IMG/VR virus record: IMGVR_UViG_2654587996_000008 | DNA length: 14,413 bases | Reading direction: 5' to 3' (one strand) | Origin: a virus | Taxonomy: Duplodnaviria; Heunggongvirae; Uroviricota; Caudoviricetes | Shown: in pieces, positions 1-11,084 of the stretch | How positions within the stretch are numbered: position 1 is the stretch's first letter | Layout of the letters: each line of letters starts with the position of its first letter | Notes under the pieces: model-generated | Database searches by the model: none | What the model was told of the DNA's origin: nothing | The model's input: the letters and a program-made list of their open reading frames with translations, nothing else | Program-made: the position numbers and the translations under genes

Positions 1-267
1 TCAGAACTTTTTTCGAATGACATCCTGGAGCATTTCCTTGTCCAGACTGAGGTCTGCCACCAGACGACGGAGCCGCTGATTTTCATCCTCCAGTTGCCGC
101 AGACGGCGCAATTCTGTCACGCCCATCCCGCCAAACTTTTTCTTCCAGTTGTAAAAAGTGGCTTCAGAAATGCCCATCTTTCTGCACACTTCCTCCCCCC
201 GGGTGCCGATTTCAGCCTGTTTCAGCGCAAAAGCGATCTGTTCTTCGGTATAGCGGGTCTTTTTCAT
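1..267 (-). CDS. IS3-family transposase OrfA (HTH ORF, IS407-group-like)
   Basis: 88-aa ORF with stop at 1-3. Translation 'MKKTRYTEEQIAFALKQAEIG...ATFYNWKKKFGG...LRRLRQLEDENQRLRRL' has the HTH plus leucine-zipper pattern of IS3-family OrfA. An A6G slippery heptamer sits at its 3' end; orfB would lie beyond the left edge. Confidence 0.8.
   Translation of the reverse strand: MKKTRYTEEQIAFALKQAEIGTRGEEVCRKMGISEATFYNWKKKFGGMGVTELRRLRQLEDENQRLRRLVADLSLDKEMLQDVIRKKF
7..13 (-). other. Programmed -1 ribosomal frameshift heptamer A-AAA-AAG (IS3-family OrfAB fusion signal)
   Basis: The minus strand reads 'CGAAAAAAGTTCTGA' at nt 15..1, i.e. AAAAAAG immediately before the orfA stop. Confidence 0.6.
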
Positions 268-2348: not shown

Positions 2349-2606
2349 GTTGACACTTTCCGGCTTAAGACCTTAATAAATCTTAATATCGCAGGTTGAC
2401 ACACTTGACACTTTTTCGCGAAAAACCTTAGCATTTCTAAGCATGGCAACTTGACATTTTTCGCGGTTTTTTCGGCTTTTTGACGTGGTAAATCTGGCAC
2501 AAACCCAGTAATTGCGGGGCTTACAGCGAGGTTGACACTTTTTCGCGTTCAGAGTGTAAAGTGTCAACCTGGCAAGCTTGCCAGCTGCTCAACTTGACAC
2601 TTTTTG
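2349..2606 (+). repeat. Array of direct repeats, consensus about TTGACACTTTTTCGCG, plus one inverted copy and a 16-bp palindrome
   Basis: Copies at 2349-2360, 2395-2402, 2405-2420, 2451-2466, 2480-2485 (degenerate), 2531-2547 and 2594-2606; inverted 'GTGTCAAC' at 2561-2568; perfect palindrome 'CTGGCAAGCTTGCCAG' at 2569-2584. Spacing is irregular. Confidence 0.7.
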
Positions 2607-2609
2607 ATG

Positions 2610-3137
2610 TCATTGATGGTCTGATTTTTCCCACTCAGCCAGGGCGTTTAACCCGGCTTCACTCCATGATTCCGGTTCATCGGGATAATCACCTGCAACA
2701 TAGCAGAGTTCGCAACGCAGCATACGAATTGCCAGCCTGGCATTACCTCGCAAATTGTATTTTTCAAAGTAATGCTGCCCTTCATCATCCTCAAGGCAGA
2801 TAGCACCATCATCAAGAAAGTGCACTTCCCAGCCTAATTCCCCGGCTGCATACAGCACACGCTGCTGTATGCCCTCGTCCGTTACTGGCGCAGGAATTTT
2901 ACCGTCTCTGGCCTTAACTGCTTTCCAGAACTCGCCCCATGTCATTTCCAGCGTTCTTTCTGGCCACATTTCAGAAATGGTGTCTTTCCCCTGTGCTGGT
3001 GGGCTGTTCCGCTGCTCTGTCGCTTCCACATCAATTTTTTTACCGGACATGACCACTTCGCCTTTCTCGAGCCAGTCGTAAACTGTCTGGCGGCTTACGC
3101 CTTTGTATTTGGCGTATTCGGCTTTACTCATCAACAT
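2610..3137 (-). CDS. Nu1-like winged-HTH DNA-binding protein (possible terminase-small-subunit-like / packaging-redirection protein)
   Basis: About 175 aa from the ATG at 3137 (SD 'GAGGTG' 7 nt upstream; the ORF track's earlier ATG at 3155 lacks an SD). N-terminus 'MSKAEYAKYKGVSRQTVYDWLEKGEVV' resembles lambda Nu1 'KKQLADIFGASIRTIQNWQEQGMPV'. The repeat array lies immediately 3'. Confidence 0.5.
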   Translation of the reverse strand: MLMSKAEYAKYKGVSRQTVYDWLEKGEVVMSGKKIDVEATEQRNSPPAQGKDTISEMWPERTLEMTWGEFWKAVKARDGKIPAPVTDEGIQQRVLYAAGELGWEVHFLDDGAICLEDDEGQHYFEKYNLRGNARLAIRMLRCELCYVAGDYPDEPESWSEAGLNALAEWEKSDHQ

Positions 3138-3236
3138 GTAGCTCACCTCATGCATATACGATAAAAAATAATTTCATGCGGAAAGGGAATGCGTTGTGGG
3201 TATGGAGGAAAGGGGCAATAACCGCCCCTTACTGAT

Positions 3237-3509
3237 TCAGTTGCGCCAGGATGGCTGGCTAAGCGTGGTTTTCATTACATCATTGACGACCTGTTTTACG
3301 ATTTCTGTGTTGGCAGTCGTGCTTTCAACATCAACAAAGCCATAATCGCCAATTTCCACCGTCAGGGATTCCAGTTTCTTCCCTAGAGCATCAGGCAACT
3401 CTCCACTGAACCGGTGCTGAAGATTTTCCACCAGCAACGCCCTGAATGCCTCGCTGTTCTCTTTTTTCTGCCATAGCTGGCGTTTATCCACTCTGATATT
3501 TAATTTCAC
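3237..3509 (-). CDS. Hypothetical protein (90 aa), coupled to the upstream RHH gene
   Basis: ATGA start/stop overlap with the upstream gene at 3506-3509. No recognised motif. Confidence 0.45.
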   Translation of the reverse strand: MKLNIRVDKRQLWQKKENSEAFRALLVENLQHRFSGELPDALGKKLESLTVEIGDYGFVDVESTTANTEIVKQVVNDVMKTTLSQPSWRN

Positions 3510-3673
3510 AGTCTCACCTCTTTAAGTGCCTTATCCATCAGTTGCCGAGCGATAACATGAATCGACGGTGCCACACCAAGCACAGATTTCTGACGCTCTT
3601 CGTCCTGGATGCGTTGCAGGGCTTCGATCTGCCTCCGGGAAAGTAAAACTGGCTTTACTCCGTGATTTTTCAT
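3506..3673 (-). CDS. Small ribbon-helix-helix-like DNA-binding protein (55 aa)
   Basis: ATG at 3673 with SD 'AAGGGA' 6 nt upstream. 'KPVLLSRRQIEALQRIQDEE...VLGVAPSIHVIARQLMDKAL' fits a beta-strand plus two helices. The longer 107-aa ORF-track form adds a Cys-rich N-terminus translated from AT-rich intergenic DNA and is rejected. Confidence 0.5.
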   Translation of the reverse strand: MKNHGVKPVLLSRRQIEALQRIQDEERQKSVLGVAPSIHVIARQLMDKALKEVRL

Positions 3674-3692
3674 GATGATCCCTTCTGAATGA

Positions 3693-3710
3693 CAATAATT
3701 GCAATTATTG
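3693..3710. promoter_or_regulatory. 18-bp perfect palindrome CAATAATTGCAATTATTG (putative operator)
   Basis: Lies 20-37 bp upstream of the RHH gene start. A related partial copy 'ACAATTGCAATAA' sits at 3734-3746. Confidence 0.45.
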
Positions 3711-3951
3711 CACAAATTGAAATGATACCAGAGACAATTGCAATAAATGAAACGAAAAGCATCAATAAACCAACCTTCGGCACTGAATGCTCTGATTTTT
3801 CTGCAAAGGTATGGCAGATGTTGGTGCATGCAAACATAAAGGCAATAGCAGAAGAAACAGCGGGGAGTGAAAAGGGGAAGTTTTTATAAATACACGATTG
3901 TCGCCTCACTGCAGGTTAACAGCCACAAGCTCCATGATAATAACTTGTTAA

Positions 3952-4275
3952 TTATTTCATCAGATTTTTCATTATTTGCGCGATTGAATACACAAGCAAA
4001 AACTCGGCAGCCGCAAGAGTATAAAAAACATAAATTCGCTTAGCCCACCGACGATGAAAGAACTCCTCAGCATGGCCGGATGTTCGAGATACAAGCCATG
4101 CACCTACTGCACACAGAGCAGGTGCAATGAGCACAGTTATAAACCAGATTGTGATGCCCATCCCATGCCTACTGATAATAGCCATTGGTATTGCAAAAAT
4201 GAATGTTAGAGCAGCATTAGCTAATAGAATATCTTTTAAAGTATTTTCAATTAGTTTTTCTAGATTATCTTTCAT
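3952..4275 (-). CDS. Small integral membrane protein (107 aa, 2-3 predicted TM helices)
   Basis: Hydrophobic stretches 'LLANAALTFIFAIPMAIISRHGMGITIWFITVLIAPALCAVGAWLV' and 'IYVFYTLAAAEFLLVYSIAQIM'. ATG at 4275 is preceded by a G-rich SD. Confidence 0.55.
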   Translation of the reverse strand: MKDNLEKLIENTLKDILLANAALTFIFAIPMAIISRHGMGITIWFITVLIAPALCAVGAWLVSRTSGHAEEFFHRRWAKRIYVFYTLAAAEFLLVYSIAQIMKNLMK

Positions 4276-4298
4276 CTAATCCCCCCCGTTGAACATTA

Positions 4299-4326
4299 AT
4301 ATATAAAAGCCCCTTACTAAGGGGCT
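4299..4326 (-). terminator. Intrinsic terminator after the lipoprotein gene
   Basis: 8-bp stem (4308-4315 'AGCCCCTT' pairing 4319-4326 'AAGGGGCT') with a 3-nt loop, followed on the minus strand by 'TTTATATATT'. It sits between the lipoprotein stop (4340) and the membrane-protein start (4275). Confidence 0.5.
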
Positions 4327-4339
4327 TTGCACGGATTGT

Positions 4340-5482
4340 TTAAAGGGAACTTTTTTTCGCCCCTTCAATTTCTGCCTGACAAATTTCGTCATTTGTAAAT
4401 GAGTACTGCAGATAGACATATCCCTGAGTGGAATTGTTCGCTCTGGCCTCAATAGATATAGTATCAATATTGTTTTTTAATGGTATTTCTTTTGTTCCCT
4501 TCCATGTGGCAGATAAGAAGCGTTCTTTTTTGTTTAGCCCCCTCATCCAGTCCTGAGGATCTTTCCAAATTGAACCAGCCAGCAAAAAGTCTGTAGTATC
4601 AGCCTTTCCATACAGAGAACTTAAAGAATTACTCAATTCTTCAAACTTGGATTTAAGAGCCAATCCATAGCTATCAGTATCAATATTTTTTCCTAAAGCC
4701 CGTATTTGACATAAACCAGCTTTCGGGGAGATCAACAAACCATACATTTCAAAATCTGCGTTTTGCTTCGGTAATTTATCAGAAGTATACAGATTCACAC
4801 TGTCTGGTAGTGGCTTGAGCTTAGCACCGATCATATCTTCGATGTTTTTCTGTGTAAGACCGGCTTCTAAGCCAAACGGACCATCCGCTGGCGGGAGTAA
4901 AGGAAGTTGCTCTTGGGAATTTTTGGCTGTTACTTCCGTTTCAGTACTGTTTTTTGCGTCATTATCTTGTACTGATGCCAGCTTAACTTCAGCGAGGCCA
5001 TACTTGGCTGTGAGGTACTTTTGCTGCAACATTGCCATGGTCTGCTCTTCAGTGGCAACAGTAGATAATTTTAGTACCTTTATCAGACCACCACTATACT
5101 GACGAGCATCAGCTTTGGCTTCGTTGATTTTTGCATCTAAGCTGTCAATTTCAGTTTTAATTGAAGCCGCAAGCTCAGGATCAGGTTTTACTCCAGATAC
5201 AACAACATCAATTTTGGCGCCTGATTCAATAGCATTAATACGCTGTTCCAAAAGCGCTTTATTAGTTCCTAATATTTCCAGTCTTGCTGTTGTCAGATTT
5301 TTTATCAACCCACCAGAAAACTGCTGGTCAACTTCCTTAGCTGCTGATATTTCACCTTCCGTTTGCGATAGTTCAGCTTTAAGAGCCGCTACTTCCTGTT
5401 TCTGTTCTGGAGTTAACTCTTCTGGCCCACATCCGGTTAACATTACTATACCGACTAATGTTGCAATTAAAGTTTTATTCAT
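4340..5482 (-). CDS. Lipoprotein (380 aa) with internal repeats
   Basis: Signal peptide and lipobox 'MNKTLIATLVGIVMLTGC'. Repeated 'Q[FY]SGGLIK' motif and coiled-coil-like central region. Function unknown. Confidence 0.65.
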   Translation of the reverse strand: MNKTLIATLVGIVMLTGCGPEELTPEQKQEVAALKAELSQTEGEISAAKEVDQQFSGGLIKNLTTARLEILGTNKALLEQRINAIESGAKIDVVVSGVKPDPELAASIKTEIDSLDAKINEAKADARQYSGGLIKVLKLSTVATEEQTMAMLQQKYLTAKYGLAEVKLASVQDNDAKNSTETEVTAKNSQEQLPLLPPADGPFGLEAGLTQKNIEDMIGAKLKPLPDSVNLYTSDKLPKQNADFEMYGLLISPKAGLCQIRALGKNIDTDSYGLALKSKFEELSNSLSSLYGKADTTDFLLAGSIWKDPQDWMRGLNKKERFLSATWKGTKEIPLKNNIDTISIEARANNSTQGYVYLQYSFTNDEICQAEIEGAKKSSL

Positions 5483-5616
5483 ATCCCTATTCCAAATGAA
5501 AATATTCAGATTAATCTTATCAGGAACCCAGATGCAATTGAATATTCATCTGCTCAGCAACGTAGTAGCTTTCCTCAGAAAGCATCAACAAAAAACCAAG
5601 AGAATCCCATCCTCTG

Positions 5617-5904
5617 TTACTGACTACAATTGTTCTTTTTTTGGTATTTCCTGAATGCCTCACCATTGGGCTGATGTAATCCCATCCCGACATGTGCCCG
5701 GCAGATGGTTTTGCGCATCTCCCCGAAATTATCCTGCCTTGCTGGTGGGCGTGCTGCCTTGTGGATACATTCCGCGCGACGTTTTGCCGCCTGTTCCCGT
5801 GCCTTGTCATCATTCGCCAGCATGATGACCTCAGCCCACCGCGCCGCCGCTCTGCGGTACAGGCCACGCGCTTCCAGTGCTTCCGCTTTACTGTCCTGAA
5901 TCAT
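5617..5904 (-). CDS. PerC-family transcriptional regulator (Pch-like)
   Basis: 95 aa. 'KAEALEARGLYRRAAARWAEV' matches the conserved PerC/Pch N-terminal motif as I recall it. SD 'AGGAGG' upstream; ATGA overlap with the upstream stop. Confidence 0.65.
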   Translation of the reverse strand: MIQDSKAEALEARGLYRRAAARWAEVIMLANDDKAREQAAKRRAECIHKAARPPARQDNFGEMRKTICRAHVGMGLHQPNGEAFRKYQKKNNCSQ

Positions 5905-6479
5905 GCACCTGTTACCTCCTTTGCTGCCCGGCGCTGACGTTTGCGCTTCTCATTCAGCGCCACCAGCCGCGTTTCTGCCTCCTGCTGTTCCTGTGGTGTC
6001 ACTTCCCCACATGGCTGGCCTTTCAGGTCGTAGCGTACCCCACCAGCCATTAAGGCGCGGTAATAGCGCGGACACTGCGCATAAGATGCCAGCGTCGCAC
6101 GTAATGCCCCTGGCCCGAATGCCAGCCCCCTGACGGCGAGGTTCTGCATCAGGTCGTCGAATATCCCCACCTTAAGCGGCTTCGGTGCTTCCCGGCTGAA
6201 TAAGTCAGGCCACAACTCAGTAAGGCGGTTAACGCGCCTGCGGTTTTTTCGCTGCCGTTTGGTCATATGCCGCCACGGTGTCGCCCCTGTGGGCTTTTGC
6301 TGCGCTTTCTGGTTACCGGGCATCACTTTATGTGCCGATGTGGTTTTATCCTGCTCCTGCGTCGCCTGCGTCGTTTTCTGCGGCGTGCCGTAAATGCCTT
6401 TCGGTTTTCTGTTAATGGTCAGCTTAGTCATGCTTTGCCCCATCGTTTTTACTGGTTGTTTCATATCCGGTACTTTCAT
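5901..6479 (-). CDS. ProQ/FinO-domain RNA-binding protein
   Basis: 192 aa. 'KPLKVGIFDDL...LRATLASYAQCPRYYRALMAGGVRYDLKGQPCGEVT' parallels E. coli ProQ 'RPLKIGIFQDL...[36 protein letters not shown]', preceded by a basic Lys/Arg/Gln-rich N-terminus. The exact start is uncertain among several in-frame ATGs. Confidence 0.65.
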   Translation of the reverse strand: MKVPDMKQPVKTMGQSMTKLTINRKPKGIYGTPQKTTQATQEQDKTTSAHKVMPGNQKAQQKPTGATPWRHMTKRQRKNRRRVNRLTELWPDLFSREAPKPLKVGIFDDLMQNLAVRGLAFGPGALRATLASYAQCPRYYRALMAGGVRYDLKGQPCGEVTPQEQQEAETRLVALNEKRKRQRRAAKEVTGA

Positions 6480-6787: not shown

Positions 6788-8536
6788 TTATAAAAATTCC
6801 TCGGTTCTCTCCGTTTGTATAACGTTGGTTTGTATTCGTCCTTTAAAACCTCTTGTCAGGTATTCAGCCCCATATTCTCTTGCTGCTGACTTCATGGCCT
6901 TACCAAAATCACCGACACTTAATATTTCTTCTTCCCCCATATACTCCATAAAGGCGAGATATAGTCTGTACAGGCTTGTACGCGGATTAAGATCAGTTAA
7001 TCTCTTACCGCCTCCCATCATCATCCCATGCGGTTCATCAAGAAATGCAAGCGCCGCACATAACCCAATGACAGGATCAGTTTCCTGTTTTATTTTCAGA
7101 GCTTCGGCACCGTCGCGCTGCTCCAACAATAATTCCCGTGCTTTTTCTGGATCGGAAAAGTTAGCCAGTAATCGACGAATAATGACAGGTATTTCCGCCG
7201 CTATCTTTTGCGGTAACTCTTTATCCTTTTCGGTCTCCCTTACAATATTATCGAACCGAAAAATTACACGTCGACGCGCAACGCCTCCGGCCCGTTCGGT
7301 GAATGTCATCGGCACGTTATTTGTTGCCAGCACGACGGACCTGATAATTGTTGTGAAACGCTTTTCATATTTCGGGTTAATTTCAACTGGATCTCCACCC
7401 GTTATTTTTTTGATGCCGGATCCTTCACCTGTATATTTCGGCTGGTCTGCCAGGACAATAAGACGACTTCCGACAACCTGCGCACGCCCGCCAGCATCAT
7501 CAAGTGATGTCATTTCAGCGCTTACCGTGTTCTGTTTCCCTGCCAGAAGGGTGGCTATGTGCGTGATTGTGCTCTTGCCGCTCCCACCTTCCCCTGTGGC
7601 CTCAATAAACATCTGCCAGTCGTACCGGTTCGCCATAATCATGTACAGCGCGGCGCATATACGCATCATCTTTCGCGGGTCTTTTCCTGCGGCGTGATCA
7701 AGCCATTTATGAAAGTTTGGCGCGTTGTCGCGGATGTTCTCCCCTGGTACTGGTGGCGTGTACTCAATGCCGTTATGCGTGGTGATCCAGTTATCCGGCG
7801 AGTGCGGGGAAAATTCGCCAGTTTTCATGTCAAGCACGCCATTAGAGAACGGCAATAAATCACCTGACGGCTCCCCCATTGGCCTGGCCATAACTTTTAA
7901 AGCATCCACTGTATTACTTATTGCTCTCCGACTAAATGATGTTCCGTTTTCTTCGTAAATAGCCACCATTTCACGACTAAGATCCAGTGTGCTTACCGGA
8001 ACCCAAAAATCATCGCGCCAGACGTGAACAACCTCACTCTCCTGATTCATTGCTACATCCTGAAATCGTTCAGCTAAAAGTTTTGCCCTTTGGCTGTCCG
8101 CCATTCTGGAAAGAGATATTTTGTGTTTTTTCTCGGTCCTTCCTGACAGAATTTCTCCGCGCTCAGCCTGTCCGCGGATCCGTTGCAAGTAGTCGCGCCA
8201 GTTCTCCGGCTCCCGGTCGGTGATACCTTTGTATAATTTCGCCTCCTGTACGCCAGCCAGCGCCAGCTTTTCAGCGATAGCATTGATCTGGATTGGTTCG
8301 ATCTCTCCCGCGAGATAGACACGCGCAAAGCGGCGTTTCTCGTCAATAATGCGGATATTCGCCAGGTCTGCCAGTTGCTTTGGCCCCAGGTAAACAGGTG
8401 GTACGTTATCGCCGTGTTTTCGTCCTTCGCTTTCAATCCAGTGTTGAGCATGGGAGTAAGCGTCCGCCCCGGCAAAAATGATTACCTCTGTGAATTTATC
8501 CTTCGGCTGATATTTTAAATTCGGTGCGTTTTTCAC
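6788..8536 (-). CDS. P4-family primase/helicase (D5-like, Walker A P-loop)
   Basis: 582 aa with Walker A 'GEGGSGKST' and a phage/plasmid primase C-terminal-type region. GTG start at 8536 with SD 'GGAGG' 7 nt upstream; GTGA overlap with the upstream ORF. Confidence 0.85.
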   Translation of the reverse strand: MKNAPNLKYQPKDKFTEVIIFAGADAYSHAQHWIESEGRKHGDNVPPVYLGPKQLADLANIRIIDEKRRFARVYLAGEIEPIQINAIAEKLALAGVQEAKLYKGITDREPENWRDYLQRIRGQAERGEILSGRTEKKHKISLSRMADSQRAKLLAERFQDVAMNQESEVVHVWRDDFWVPVSTLDLSREMVAIYEENGTSFSRRAISNTVDALKVMARPMGEPSGDLLPFSNGVLDMKTGEFSPHSPDNWITTHNGIEYTPPVPGENIRDNAPNFHKWLDHAAGKDPRKMMRICAALYMIMANRYDWQMFIEATGEGGSGKSTITHIATLLAGKQNTVSAEMTSLDDAGGRAQVVGSRLIVLADQPKYTGEGSGIKKITGGDPVEINPKYEKRFTTIIRSVVLATNNVPMTFTERAGGVARRRVIFRFDNIVRETEKDKELPQKIAAEIPVIIRRLLANFSDPEKARELLLEQRDGAEALKIKQETDPVIGLCAALAFLDEPHGMMMGGGKRLTDLNPRTSLYRLYLAFMEYMGEEEILSVGDFGKAMKSAAREYGAEYLTRGFKGRIQTNVIQTERTEEFL

Positions 8537-8823
8537 TTCTTACCTCCCGCAACCAACATTGCCCGGATTTTTTTAATATTCTTGGCTGCACGTCTCGCCA
8601 CCGCCTGTTGTTTGTTTTCAACCAGAATAAAATCACGCTCAAACTGACGACGCGGCATTACGCAGTCATATTCGTAAGCCTCACGGCGGTAGGTGATATT
8701 GCCTGGCGTAACGTGACGAATAACCACTCGTCCCCCACGTCTGGTGTCGCGGTAAATATCTCCGTGTCTGATTTCAGGCCGAGAGAGACCGCTGGCAGTA
8801 AAGCCAGAATTTTTCTTTTTCAT
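8533..8823 (-). CDS. Hypothetical small basic protein (96 aa)
   Basis: SD 'AGGAAA' upstream of the ATG at 8823; coupled to the primase start. Confidence 0.5.
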   Translation of the reverse strand: MKKKNSGFTASGLSRPEIRHGDIYRDTRRGGRVVIRHVTPGNITYRREAYEYDCVMPRRQFERDFILVENKQQAVARRAAKNIKKIRAMLVAGGKK

Positions 8824-8827
8824 GGTT

Positions 8828-9028
8828 TTATTTTCCTGTCAGCAGTTCCGGTTTTATTTCCGCACGAATACAGAGTTCAGAAAAAAATTCAGGAGAACCA
8901 ACAATCTCATTACTTTTCAGTCGGCATTGTGATTTCACTTTCCCTTTATCCAGGTAAACCAGTACGCGTCCGGTGAAATCATCTGGCACATTAAGCACTA
9001 CGGGTACATGCGCTTCATGATTATGCAT
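8828..9028 (-). CDS. Hypothetical protein (66 aa)
   Basis: SD 'GGAGGA' upstream; ATGCATAA overlap with the preceding ORF. Confidence 0.45.
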   Translation of the reverse strand: MHNHEAHVPVVLNVPDDFTGRVLVYLDKGKVKSQCRLKSNEIVGSPEFFSELCIRAEIKPELLTGK

Positions 9029-9254
9029 GGCTTACATCCTCCGTGAATTTTCTTCTGTAACGCGCCTCTGCCACATATTCCGCATAGTCCGACGCAATAC
9101 TAAGAATCATTTCACCCTCTGACTTGTAGCCATTGGTATTGATAAGAAAATATGCAGCTTTCATCATATCAGCAACGCTTAACAATGCGCCCGCTGTATC
9201 TTCCGGTGCGCCATCAAACTCCTGTTTCAGGGAATTAAAACGATCATCACGCAT
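9021..9254 (-). CDS. Hypothetical protein (77 aa)
   Basis: G-rich SD upstream of the ATG at 9254; 8-nt overlap with the upstream ORF. Confidence 0.45.
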   Translation of the reverse strand: MRDDRFNSLKQEFDGAPEDTAGALLSVADMMKAAYFLINTNGYKSEGEMILSIASDYAEYVAEARYRRKFTEDVSHA

Positions 9255-9612
9255 GTTTACCCCCCTGAATGACCTGATAACCGCAACTGGTCAGCAATTC
9301 GATAAATTCCGGCAATGTGCCGAAACAGTAATCATCACGCAGACGTTCGCGGGATACTTCAACGCCGTTTTCGTAGTGACTCACCATACACCCGGTAAAA
9401 CGCAGATCATCATCGTGATGGCACGTTGACGGCTTAATCAGTCGCGCACGCTCCGCCAGTTCCAGCAATGCTTCAACGCTTCCGGCAATTGCACCATCCG
9501 GCAGGTGATAATTACTTACTACGCGTCCATTCTCTACATTGACCAGTAGCTGCCCGGTAAATTTCTCATCAAACTGAATGCTGTTAAGGTCAGAAATAGA
9601 CGAATTATGCAT
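9247..9612 (-). CDS. Hypothetical protein (121 aa)
   Basis: ATG at 9612 is preceded by a perfect 'AGGAGG' 6 nt upstream; the ORF-track ATG at 9630 is rejected. ATGCATAA overlap with the upstream ORF. Confidence 0.5.
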   Translation of the reverse strand: MHNSSISDLNSIQFDEKFTGQLLVNVENGRVVSNYHLPDGAIAGSVEALLELAERARLIKPSTCHHDDDLRFTGCMVSHYENGVEVSRERLRDDYCFGTLPEFIELLTSCGYQVIQGGKHA

Positions 9613-9829
9613 GGTGCACCTCCTGCACATCAGCCATGATAATTTTTCCGGCCTTATCCAGTGCCTGATCGGCTTTTAGCTGCACAAATGCTAAATAATG
9701 GGAGATGCATTCTGATTCTCTGACTGCGTGTTTATGCGCCACACCAGCGATAGCTGAAATCTCAATAAGTGAATCCATCAGCGTTTTGATAGCGTCTACC
9801 GCTGCATCAGGCCATGTTGCATTACACAT
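9605..9829 (-). CDS. Hypothetical protein (74 aa)
   Basis: SD 'AGGAGG' upstream of the ATG at 9829; ATGTGTAA overlap with the upstream ORF. Confidence 0.45.
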   Translation of the reverse strand: MCNATWPDAAVDAIKTLMDSLIEISAIAGVAHKHAVRESECISHYLAFVQLKADQALDKAGKIIMADVQEVHHA

Positions 9830-10025
9830 GCTCCACCTCCTGGCGAATACGGGCAGCGAATACCATCACGCAGCCATCAGGGGATTGCTGGCGTGCTTCC
9901 TGTTCGCTGGTGGCCTCGATGTGAATTACGCGCGGTTGTGCTGTGCTCAGGGCGATAAAACGCCAGATGTATTTATTCAGGTTGTGCGAGTCCCGCCCTT
10001 GCGGGTGTGTGGTATGATTTCTCAT
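9822..10025 (-). CDS. Hypothetical protein (67 aa), first gene of the replication operon
   Basis: Internal ATG of the long stop-free frame, at 10025, with SD 'GAGGT' 5 nt upstream. Translation 'MRNHTTHPQGRDSHNLNKYIWRF...'. Confidence 0.45.
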   Translation of the reverse strand: MRNHTTHPQGRDSHNLNKYIWRFIALSTAQPRVIHIEATSEQEARQQSPDGCVMVFAARIRQEVEHV

Positions 10026-10122
10026 AGCTACCTCGATACTGTTGCTATCGTTGGTGGTTAGAAGCCCGGTTAGTGTTAGCGCACTGCCGGGTTTCGTCGT
10101 TTCTGCACCTTGCATCAACAAG

Positions 10123-10174
10123 GTGTTGAACACCAATTTAAACCTAGGTGTTAAACACGTCAAGTGTTGAACAC
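10123..10174. promoter_or_regulatory. Three 11-bp palindromic operator-like sites GTGTT(G/A)AACAC in a divergent control region
   Basis: Sites at 10123-10133, 10148-10158 and 10164-10174. The third overlaps a plus-strand -35-like 'TTGAAC' (10167-10172), with -10-like 'CATACT' (10190-10195) upstream of the RHH gene. Confidence 0.55.
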
Positions 10175-10224
10175 TTGTTTTTTTTCCTGCATACTGCATT
10201 TGTTTTTTGTGAGGGGGACACAAC

Positions 10225-10404
10225 ATGGCGACAAAAGCAGTAAACGCAAAATCACAAACAGTTGCGGCAAGGGTTCCGCATGAAGTTATGAACAATGTTG
10301 AGGCGGTAAAAATGCCTGGTGAAAGTACAGGGCAGTTTGTAACAGCAGCATTAAAGCGAGAAGTTGAGTACCGCCAGCGGCGCAAGGCCAAAGAACAGGA
10401 GTAA
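10225..10404 (+). CDS. Small ribbon-helix-helix-like regulator (59 aa), not in the ORF track
   Basis: ATG at 10225 with strong SD 'GAGGGGG'. Translation 'MATKAVNAKSQTVAARVPHEVMNNVEAVKMPGESTGQFVTAALKREVEYRQRRKAKEQE' fits a beta-strand plus two helices. The only clearly plus-strand gene, divergent from the replication operon. Confidence 0.5.
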   Translation: MATKAVNAKSQTVAARVPHEVMNNVEAVKMPGESTGQFVTAALKREVEYRQRRKAKEQE

Positions 10405-10661
10405 CCATCACCAGCGCCGTGGTGTGAGGAACGACGGTGCATCGTTTTACAGGGCAGCGCCATGACCAACAAAGAATCAACCAATACACCATCACCGGCC
10501 CGGAAAAGACAGCGCAGAAAGATAGCGTACGAGTATGAGTCAGACAGATTCGCGCCCTGTGCGTTTATCCTTGAGAATTTCCTTAAAGAGTACAGGCGCA
10601 CAAAAATGGGGTCGCATACCTGGAAAACATCGCGACATGGCAATGTTAAAGAGCCGGAATA

Positions 10662-11084
10662 GCCCACCAGCAAGCCAGCACACTGATCACATTGCCCACC
10701 AGCCGCAAATCTGGCATTGTTGGCGATGTGTTCAAGTGTGTAGCTTTCCCACTGGTGGCCCTCTGCGGTCGCCTTTGTTTTATCCAGAACGAAATCAGAC
10801 ATCAGATTAATCAGCACCTGGCGACCTGACAAAAACGCATCAGTCGCGCCACCAGCAAAATTTTTTGCTTTCCGGACAGCGTGACCAACGACATTTTGCA
10901 GCAAAATATTCTGCATTTCTGGCGTGCTGTAGTAACGGTGATCAGCGCCTTCACTCTGTGCGACCACAACGCTATAATCTGCCTCGTAGACAGTAAGCAA
11001 TATGGCGCAGTAGGCTATTCGTTCACAAAGGCGCTCCGGCAACGGGGCGCTTTCTCTTTTTGTAACGGTCAGAGCGTTACACAT
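10662..11084 (-). CDS. Hypothetical protein, 5' portion only; 3' end undefined (possible disrupted gene)
   Basis: ATG at 11084 overlaps the antirepressor stop (ATGTGTAA). The first ~140 residues look protein-like, but the frame then runs stop-free through regulatory DNA to 9822, so the true end cannot be set. The end coordinate is arbitrary. Confidence 0.25.

Follow-up and report, generated by a model that had tools for sequence, protein, structure and literature searches.

A lipoprotein cassette carried by a PICI-type phage satellite of Escherichia coli and its possible role in envelope-level exclusion

Results

An accessory cassette in a phage satellite

The 14,413-nucleotide stretch of viral DNA analyzed here (IMG/VR record IMGVR_UViG_2654587996_000008), which we refer to as the window and whose positions give all coordinates unless another locus is named, contains two neighboring genes on the minus strand. 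One encodes a lipoprotein of 380 amino acids (4340-5482) and the other a membrane protein of 107 amino acids with three predicted transmembrane segments (3952-4275, from its open reading frame [ORF] and hydropathy). Both lie in an accessory cassette of about 1.85 kb (3754-5602, minus strand) between perC and p55 with the packaging-side genes, delimited by blastn against islands that do not carry it. An earlier note on this DNA, drawn from the sequence alone, had described a lipoprotein with the lipobox LTGC and a small multispanning membrane protein in an AT-rich part of a satellite element, and that description held in each respect. The lipobox cysteine is Cys18, the smaller product has three hydrophobic segments, and the GC content is 0.37 to 0.43 over positions 3750-5500, compared with 0.52 to 0.60 in perC and proQ and approximately 0.45 to 0.50 on the other flank.

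The surrounding genes are those of a phage-inducible chromosomal island (PICI). A Pfam scan of the window identified a P4-type integrase, AlpA, AntA, DUF4222, a D5_N/DUF5906 primase, ProQ/FinO, and PerC, and a 181-amino-acid helix-turn-helix protein encoded after PerC matched the small-terminase family phrog_57 weakly (E value of 2.2e-6). No capsid, tail, or lysis genes were found in the window using the ORF list and family scans. In IMG/VR, the window corresponds to contig UViG_3300011840_000039. Judged by its gene set and gene order, the host element is a PICI-type phage satellite of E. coli. The same island is integrated at tRNA-Thr in E. coli 55989, where it adjoins proA.

Comparison with sister islands revealed that the cassette is optional. 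The islands of 258E and of the avian pathogenic E. coli (APEC) strain IMT5155 are collinear with the window, yet perC directly adjoins p55 in both, and blastn against sister islands placed the break points at 3753/3754 and 5602/5603. In locus L100, positions 8300-9516 correspond to 2528-3753 of the window and positions 9534-10343 to 5603-6425, and locus L099 aligns likewise. Because collinear islands exist without it, the pair lies in a 1.85-kb AT-rich insertion between the replication and packaging sides, and hence a second cargo site. The lipoprotein gene was present in 111 of 5,426 complete E. coli genomes, always on the chromosome and with at least 99% identity, and of the backbone genes, p55 to p90, located downstream, were found in 130 and proQ to perC in 280 of the same genomes. 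Among the islands in which the cassette adjoins perC are those of pathogenic lineages, namely, enteroaggregative E. coli (EAEC) 55989, O104:H4, and APEC. The region is a self-contained accessory cassette, or moron, carried by a PICI-type satellite.

Two features were noted at the p55 end of the cassette. Several ATTGCA/TTGCAAT repeats are located at 3700-3753, on the backbone side of the junction and just upstream of p55 (3506-3673, minus strand). Similar repeats are found in sister islands without the lipoprotein, and they are a candidate operator of the packaging-side operon. The junction is also spanned by two small overlapping candidate ORFs, a minus-strand ORF of 79 amino acids with a hydrophobic tail (3670-3909) and a plus-strand ORF of 66 amino acids (3689-3889) that is annotated by RefSeq in E. 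coli 55989.

The lipoprotein is predicted to carry a periplasmic head on a two-hairpin stalk

The signal peptide and lipobox occupy residues 1 to 18 of the lipoprotein (MNKTLIATLVGIVMLTGC; 5429-5482, minus strand) and were identified from the sequence and a regular expression, with LTGC at residues 15 to 18 fitting the pattern [LVI][ASTVI][GAS]C. Residues G17, C18, G19, and P20 were invariant in all 22 homologs of our alignment. The +2 position is occupied by Gly19, so there is no Asp retention signal, and the E. coli Lol rule predicts outer-membrane sorting for a glycine at this position. After export and lipidation of Cys18, the protein would be expected to reside in the outer membrane, on its inner leaflet.

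The mature protein can be divided into three parts, all encoded on the minus strand. The first is an N-module (residues 22 to 165; 4988-5419) that was defined by repeat alignment and an AlphaFold2 (AF2) model and consists of two tandem helical hairpins of about 74 amino acids each, with modeled helices at residues 25-53/59-87 and 102-126/133-161. The repeated Q[FY]SGGLIK motifs described in the earlier note are the most conserved parts of this two-copy duplication (QQFSGGLIK at 53-61 and RQYSGGLIK at 127-135), and the duplication is a true one, as its local alignment scored 76 while 500 shuffles gave 27.4 ± 5.0 and never exceeded 49. The SGGL turn is invariant in each hairpin. Following the N-module is a variable linker (residues 166 to 199; 4886-4987), recognized by low pLDDT and by alignment, that ends in a conserved PLLPP. 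Residues 161 to 195 have pLDDT values below 50, and the linker columns are poorly conserved. The third part is a C-terminal alpha/beta head that we call the GPFGL domain (residues 200 to 380; 4343-4885), delimited by the AF2 model and conserved columns. The structure prediction proposed in the earlier note returned two helical hairpins, a low-confidence linker, and a confidently modeled head, which when modeled alone reached a pLDDT of 89.6 and a pTM of 0.84.

Two cysteines in the head, C258 and C368, are invariant. On the model, the head is probably disulfide bonded and periplasmic and is held by a flexible linker of about 35 residues on the two-hairpin stalk. Its predicted fold class is a common alpha/beta sandwich of envelope proteins, from which no homology can be claimed. 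For the lipoprotein, comparison of the copies from E. coli, Klebsiella, and Citrobacter gave ratios of nonsynonymous to synonymous substitution rates (dN/dS) of 0.05 to 0.08, indicating purifying selection.

The lipoprotein gene resembles an autonomous transcription unit

An intrinsic terminator was identified by a terminator scan at 4306-4328 on the minus strand (AAAGCCCCTTAGTAAGGGGCTTT followed by TATATATT), directly after the lipoprotein stop codon, with a 10-bp stem that contains 5 G-C pairs and a dG of -13.8 kcal/mol. A hairpin and T-run occur at the same position after most of the lipoprotein homologs, with hairpin sequences that differ by lineage.

A conserved block upstream of the gene (5508-5542, minus strand) contains a candidate promoter composed of a -35-like TTCAAT (5537-5542), a 17-nucleotide spacer, and a -10-like TAAGAT (5514-5519). 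Overlapping the -10-like element is a perfect palindrome, AGATTAATCT (5508-5517), in place of which orthologs carry GGATTAATCC, and this paired change means that the palindrome is retained. The block, in the form TTCAnT-17-TAgGAT, is kept upstream of plasmid, chromosomal, and island homologs that share no other flanking sequence, and it persists to homologs with 64 to 70% protein identity. Its conservation in such unrelated contexts suggests that the palindrome is a putative binding site for a dimeric regulator. As a promoter, the block is a consensus-level match only and is absent from the list of a strict promoter scan. A Fur box was considered for this block and rejected, as the match was no better than that of shuffled sequences. 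Taken together, the promoter-like element with its palindrome, the gene, and the terminator would make up an autonomous transcription unit.

The small membrane protein is a facultative addition

The 107-amino-acid protein has hydrophobic segments at roughly residues 16 to 35, 38 to 63, and 81 to 102. Applying the positive-inside rule, we infer that it resides in the inner membrane with its N terminus and an 18-residue basic loop in the cytoplasm and only about 11 residues exposed to the periplasm, so that nearly all of its hydrophilic mass would be cytoplasmic. Its dN/dS of 0.15 to 0.21 in the same three-way comparison again points to purifying selection, and as selection acts on both ORFs, we consider both to be real genes.

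The smaller gene has its start codon 30 nucleotides past the terminator stem, with GGGGGGGA ahead of it. No promoter-like site found in our promoter scan fits within the 35 to 40 nucleotides between the terminator and this start codon, so the simplest reading is lower-level read-through of the terminator, by which the 107-amino-acid protein is probably made in smaller amounts. The earlier note had taken the hairpin between the two genes as a sign of differential expression. The hairpin is present, and unequal dosage through read-through is reasonable to expect, but the terminator belongs to the lipoprotein unit and is not specific to the pair.

The two genes are also unequal in their distribution. 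The family of the 107-amino-acid protein comprises 17 clusters, compared with at least 319 for the lipoprotein, and every copy of the smaller gene that we examined (in E. coli, Citrobacter, Klebsiella, and Edwardsiella) is located 64 to 68 nucleotides after a lipoprotein homolog. The lipoprotein family, in contrast, usually occurs without it. The smaller gene is missing next to homologs with 86 to 89% identity that are carried by an Enterobacter plasmid and by other genera, p55 directly follows the lipoprotein gene in other islands, and in Yokenella the smaller gene is a pseudogene with two in-frame stop codons accompanied by an intact lipoprotein gene. An envelope-targeted pair, as this region had been called, is therefore accurate in that both products are predicted to be targeted to the envelope, but the pair is not an obligate one. 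From this distribution, the 107-amino-acid protein is a lineage-specific, facultative add-on after the terminator.

In a Klebsiella lineage with 64% lipoprotein identity, unrelated small ORFs with two transmembrane segments follow the lipoprotein gene at the same spacing. These ORFs are paralogous to one another, lie after the lipoprotein terminator (L039 9206-9439 and 9712-9972; L035 9254-9418), and are missing from the gene calls.

A large lipoprotein family with mobile modules

At 90% identity, the family of the lipoprotein comprises at least 319 clusters, which belong to Enterobacterales and carry no Pfam domain, and a profile search of 1.84 billion representatives extended this to 2,869 relatives, counted as clusters at 50% identity. 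The same search revealed that the N-module and the C-module are independently mobile. N-modules are joined to other C termini in other lipoproteins, one of which carries a VasI domain, while another, from Paracoccus, is annotated as peptidoglycan binding. By itself, the GPFGL head makes up Sec-secreted proteins of about 195 amino acids whose mature end begins at GPFGL.

Searches of Pfam, PHROGs, and NCBIfam returned no family above noise for either cassette protein, and neither matched an entry of PADLOC-DB v2 at an E value of 0.01 or less. Lenient Pfam scans (E values up to 5) of 22 and 30 family members gave coiled-coil noise only and no exclusion family, and sequence searches of the PDB returned only designed coiled coils. 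The only matches of the lipoprotein, to LpoB and SA0632, were far below the cutoff, at the level of signal-peptide noise, and were discarded. Membership in the LTXXQ (CpxP/Spy) family was considered because of sub-threshold Pfam matches in 10 of 22 members (best E value of 0.018) and was rejected, since hhalign against E. coli Spy aligned only an 11-residue LTPEQK motif with a probability of 2%. Literature searches by protein accession and by the topics of satellites, lipoproteins, and exclusion found nothing on the lipoprotein family. No description of the family, of its stalk-and-head architecture, or of its occurrence within a PICI was found in the libraries and papers searched, although morons for envelope proteins are, as a kind, already known from mobile elements.

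Relatives of the lipoprotein were found in a wide range of settings. Full-length homologs occur in other primase-bearing Enterobacter islands, in a degraded Klebsiella island at proA that adjoins a PDC-S20 KAP NTPase, at a seemingly ordinary chromosomal site in Pantoea, and on an Enterobacter plasmid, where genes for a colicin-like tRNase and its immunity protein lie about 3 kb away. A stalk-bearing relative is encoded beside a BREX system on a conjugative plasmid. Of the head-only relatives, one immediately follows zot in a filamentous prophage of Vibrio, one is flanked by cas6e and cas1e in a type I-E CRISPR-Cas operon of Deinococcus geothermalis (L096 5944-6528), and others share islands with the PADLOC candidates PDC-S15, PDC-S06, and PDC-S69, with a Mokosh-like helicase, and with a protein resembling QatD. 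In a Mu-like prophage, a homolog with 41% identity is flanked by a Mor-like ORF, assigned by eye, and by a GH108-type endolysin ORF, which it directly precedes. This homolog (L066 6176-9038) is split by an IS3-family insertion into a fragment with the lipobox (6176-6364) and the remainder (7869-9038).

Other features of the island

Cargo varies at the far end of the island, where otherwise near-identical islands differ in their contents (approximately 600-2600 in the window; L001 8139-10095; L099 5114-7832; L100 6076-7568; L013 11305-12741, from island comparison). This site is occupied in E. coli 55989 by genes for an AAA ATPase and a DUF4435 protein (PARIS-like), in 258E by a SIR2 gene, in IMT5155 by a DUF4747 gene, and in one Citrobacter copy by a TIR/SEFIR gene. 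This terminal site is a defense hotspot and is distinct from the site of the lipoprotein cassette. The window itself carries three co-oriented minus-strand genes here, encoding proteins of 201 (1447-2052), 102 (1126-1434), and 155 (659-1126) amino acids. The third is SecB-like and matches PADLOC PD-T4-9_C (E value of 2e-9), the other two have no family match, and the layout of the trio looks like that of a toxin-antitoxin-chaperone (TAC) defense system.

Beyond the cargo genes, at the edge of the window, an 88-amino-acid ORF (1-267, minus strand, MKKTRYTEEQIAFALKQAE...) presumably encodes an IS3-family transposase OrfA, which it resembles by eye. A mechanically called ORF of 420 amino acids (9822-11084, minus strand) is probably spurious; sister islands carry short Icd-like and YlcI/YnfO-family genes at that position, some on the opposite strand.

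Discussion

Envelope-level exclusion as the most likely role

Most of the described defense repertoire acts in the cytoplasm on nucleic acids, and such systems dominate the defense catalogs, while protection at the envelope is under-described. Envelope exclusion is rarely annotated because the proteins involved are small, diverse, and without family models. We suggest, tentatively, that the cassette functions in envelope-level exclusion, which is the most likely of the readings we considered given its recurrence in mobile elements and defense islands, its predicted envelope location, and an architecture suited to the resident state. Expressed from a resident island, the cassette would protect the cell, and with it the island itself, at the level of the envelope. 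The target of the head would be some component of the periplasm or outer membrane on which incoming phages or other invaders depend, and the 107-amino-acid protein may add a block at the inner membrane. The closest working analogy would be TraT with TraS, or Llp or Cor with Imm or SieA. Consistent with this reading are the optional AT-rich nature of the cargo, its layout as an autonomous unit, selection on its genes, the predicted targeting of both products to the envelope, and the 64- to 68-nucleotide coupling of the two genes. The same island family also carries defense cargo, TAC-like in the window and PARIS-like, SIR2, or TIR/SEFIR elsewhere. For superinfection exclusion or abortive infection, the roles raised in the earlier note, support comes from context, in that the cargo is optional and its relatives reside in prophages, plasmids, and defense islands.

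Several observations weigh against an exclusion role. Neither protein is like a known exclusion or defense protein by sequence, nor convincingly by structure, and tblastn against 50,697 deposited phage genomes found no homolog. In Pantoea, the lipoprotein is encoded at a chromosomal site with no obvious mobile element, and the link to defense islands is drawn from only a handful of loci and lacks a background control. The head is strongly conserved across phyla, which would fit equally well a housekeeping-type envelope role or a role as an inhibitor or immunity protein. Given that the lipoprotein is independent of the 107-amino-acid protein, a two-layer model is optional at best. Expression or phenotype data for the cassette proteins were not found in the literature.

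Other readings of the cassette

In a first alternative, the head is an immunity or inhibitor protein that binds and neutralizes a toxin or hydrolase acting in the periplasm (such as a type VI secretion system [T6SS] or Rhs effector, a bacteriocin, or a lysozyme) and the gene is an orphan protective gene. The head is predicted to be secreted and has two invariant cysteines, one relative of the N-module is fused to the T6SS domain VasI, and the plasmid homolog lies near a colicin-like tRNase and its immunity gene, all of which would fit such a role. No cognate toxin gene was adjacent at any locus examined, however, and the low dN/dS of the lipoprotein together with motifs that are invariant across phyla is unlike the fast diversification of immunity proteins, so we regard this alternative as unlikely.

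About equally doubtful is a second alternative, that the lipoprotein is a moron for host fitness or virulence, acting in serum resistance, envelope robustness, or colonization in the manner of Bor, Iss, or TraT and without a part in defense against phages or toxins, and that the 107-amino-acid gene is an independent second moron at a permissive spot. The position of the cassette beside perC in the EAEC 55989, O104:H4, and APEC islands is compatible with this, as are the occurrence of the lipoprotein in chromosomal settings, its retention in the degraded Klebsiella island, and its possession of a promoter-like element and terminator of its own with which it survives where the smaller gene decays. 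The gene is nevertheless found in only 111 of the 5,426 complete E. coli genomes, from many hosts and sources and with no evident restriction to a pathotype, and its relatives recur in defense islands. Full independence of the second gene is also argued against, since the 107-amino-acid protein was never found apart from the lipoprotein.

The least probable reading, that the pair serves the cycle of the satellite itself as a holin- or spanin-like aid to lysis or by interfering with the helper phage at the envelope, can draw on the size and class of the 107-amino-acid protein with its three transmembrane segments (as in some holins), on a lipoprotein with periplasmic coiled coils that recalls spanins, and on the homolog upstream of the Mu-like prophage endolysin, but it is very improbable in view of collinear sister PICIs without the cassette, lipoprotein homologs that mostly lie outside satellites with no lysis genes nearby, and the lack of a PHROG match or of an endolysin in the window. 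Direct assignment to the holins or spanins was likewise rejected, as the C-terminal tail of the 107-amino-acid protein has 5 residues and is not the charged tail typical of holins, and the lipoprotein, at 380 amino acids, contrasts with the small o-spanins.

Implications of an exclusion role

If the cassette does block the entry of phages or toxins, as envelope-level exclusion would have it, a widespread periplasmic layer would be added to bacterial immunity, and PICIs would prove to harbor two cargo sites, the terminal defense hotspot and a second one. The lipoprotein family is large and unnamed, and its gene is a portable single gene with its own control signals. A broader proposal, which at present we think improbable, is that the GPFGL head, whether secreted or tethered to the outer membrane by the stalk, defines a large unnamed class of periplasmic anti-invader proteins that bind a conserved envelope component needed for the entry of phage genomes or other invaders, with the 107-amino-acid protein as an optional partner at the inner membrane. 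Were it true, the class would have been spread across many Gram-negative phyla by satellites, Mu-like and filamentous prophages, plasmids, and defense islands, and the significance of the domain as a general anti-invader module would rise substantially. If entry is not blocked, the cassette would still be a clean example of a moron in a satellite, carried by O104:H4 among other outbreak lineages.

Comparison with known systems

The hallmarks of Gram-negative PICIs, including their gene set and order, have been described for EcCIMP1, on the proA side of the chromosome (PMC11773190). The window island shares with EcCICFT073, EcCIEDL933, and EcCIMP1 an integrase, AlpA, a primase, and PerC as well as the gene order, and its copy in 55989 is beside proA, as is EcCIMP1. 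The lipoprotein cassette would set it apart, as PMC11773190 does not mention a lipoprotein. CFT073, EDL933, and MP1 were not among the listed matches to the lipoprotein gene, a statement limited to that listing, as the three strains were not checked individually.

Like the morons of temperate phages, such as lambda bor and lom, the cassette varies in presence between collinear elements, deviates in base composition, and has its own terminator and a conserved promoter-like element. It differs in location, as those morons lie in a phage late operon while the cassette lies in a PICI satellite with its second gene beyond the terminator.

T5 Llp, phi80 and N15 Cor, TP-J34 Ltp, T4 Imm and Sp, and P22 SieA are, like the predicted products of the cassette, envelope products of accessory genes of mobile elements. 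No PHROG or Pfam match connects the cassette proteins to any of their families, and Llp and Cor are several times smaller than the cassette lipoprotein. TP-J34 Ltp is itself a lipoprotein and, like the predicted cassette lipoprotein, combines a flexible tether with two helical repeat domains in tandem.

The arrangement of the cassette also recalls TraT and TraS, the surface and entry exclusion proteins of F-like plasmids. In both cases, the gene for an outer-membrane lipoprotein (predicted for the cassette) adjoins the gene for a small multispanning inner-membrane protein (likewise predicted), and in both the genes are nonessential cargo of a mobile element, with expression anticipated in the resident state. 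The two systems have no sequence relationship, and neither TraT nor any other Pfam family was hit even at E values up to 5. The cassette differs further in its two-hairpin stalk and alpha/beta head, in the terminator between its genes, in a lipoprotein that usually occurs alone, and in its carrier, as TraT and TraS are encoded on conjugative plasmids whereas the cassette is borne by a phage satellite.

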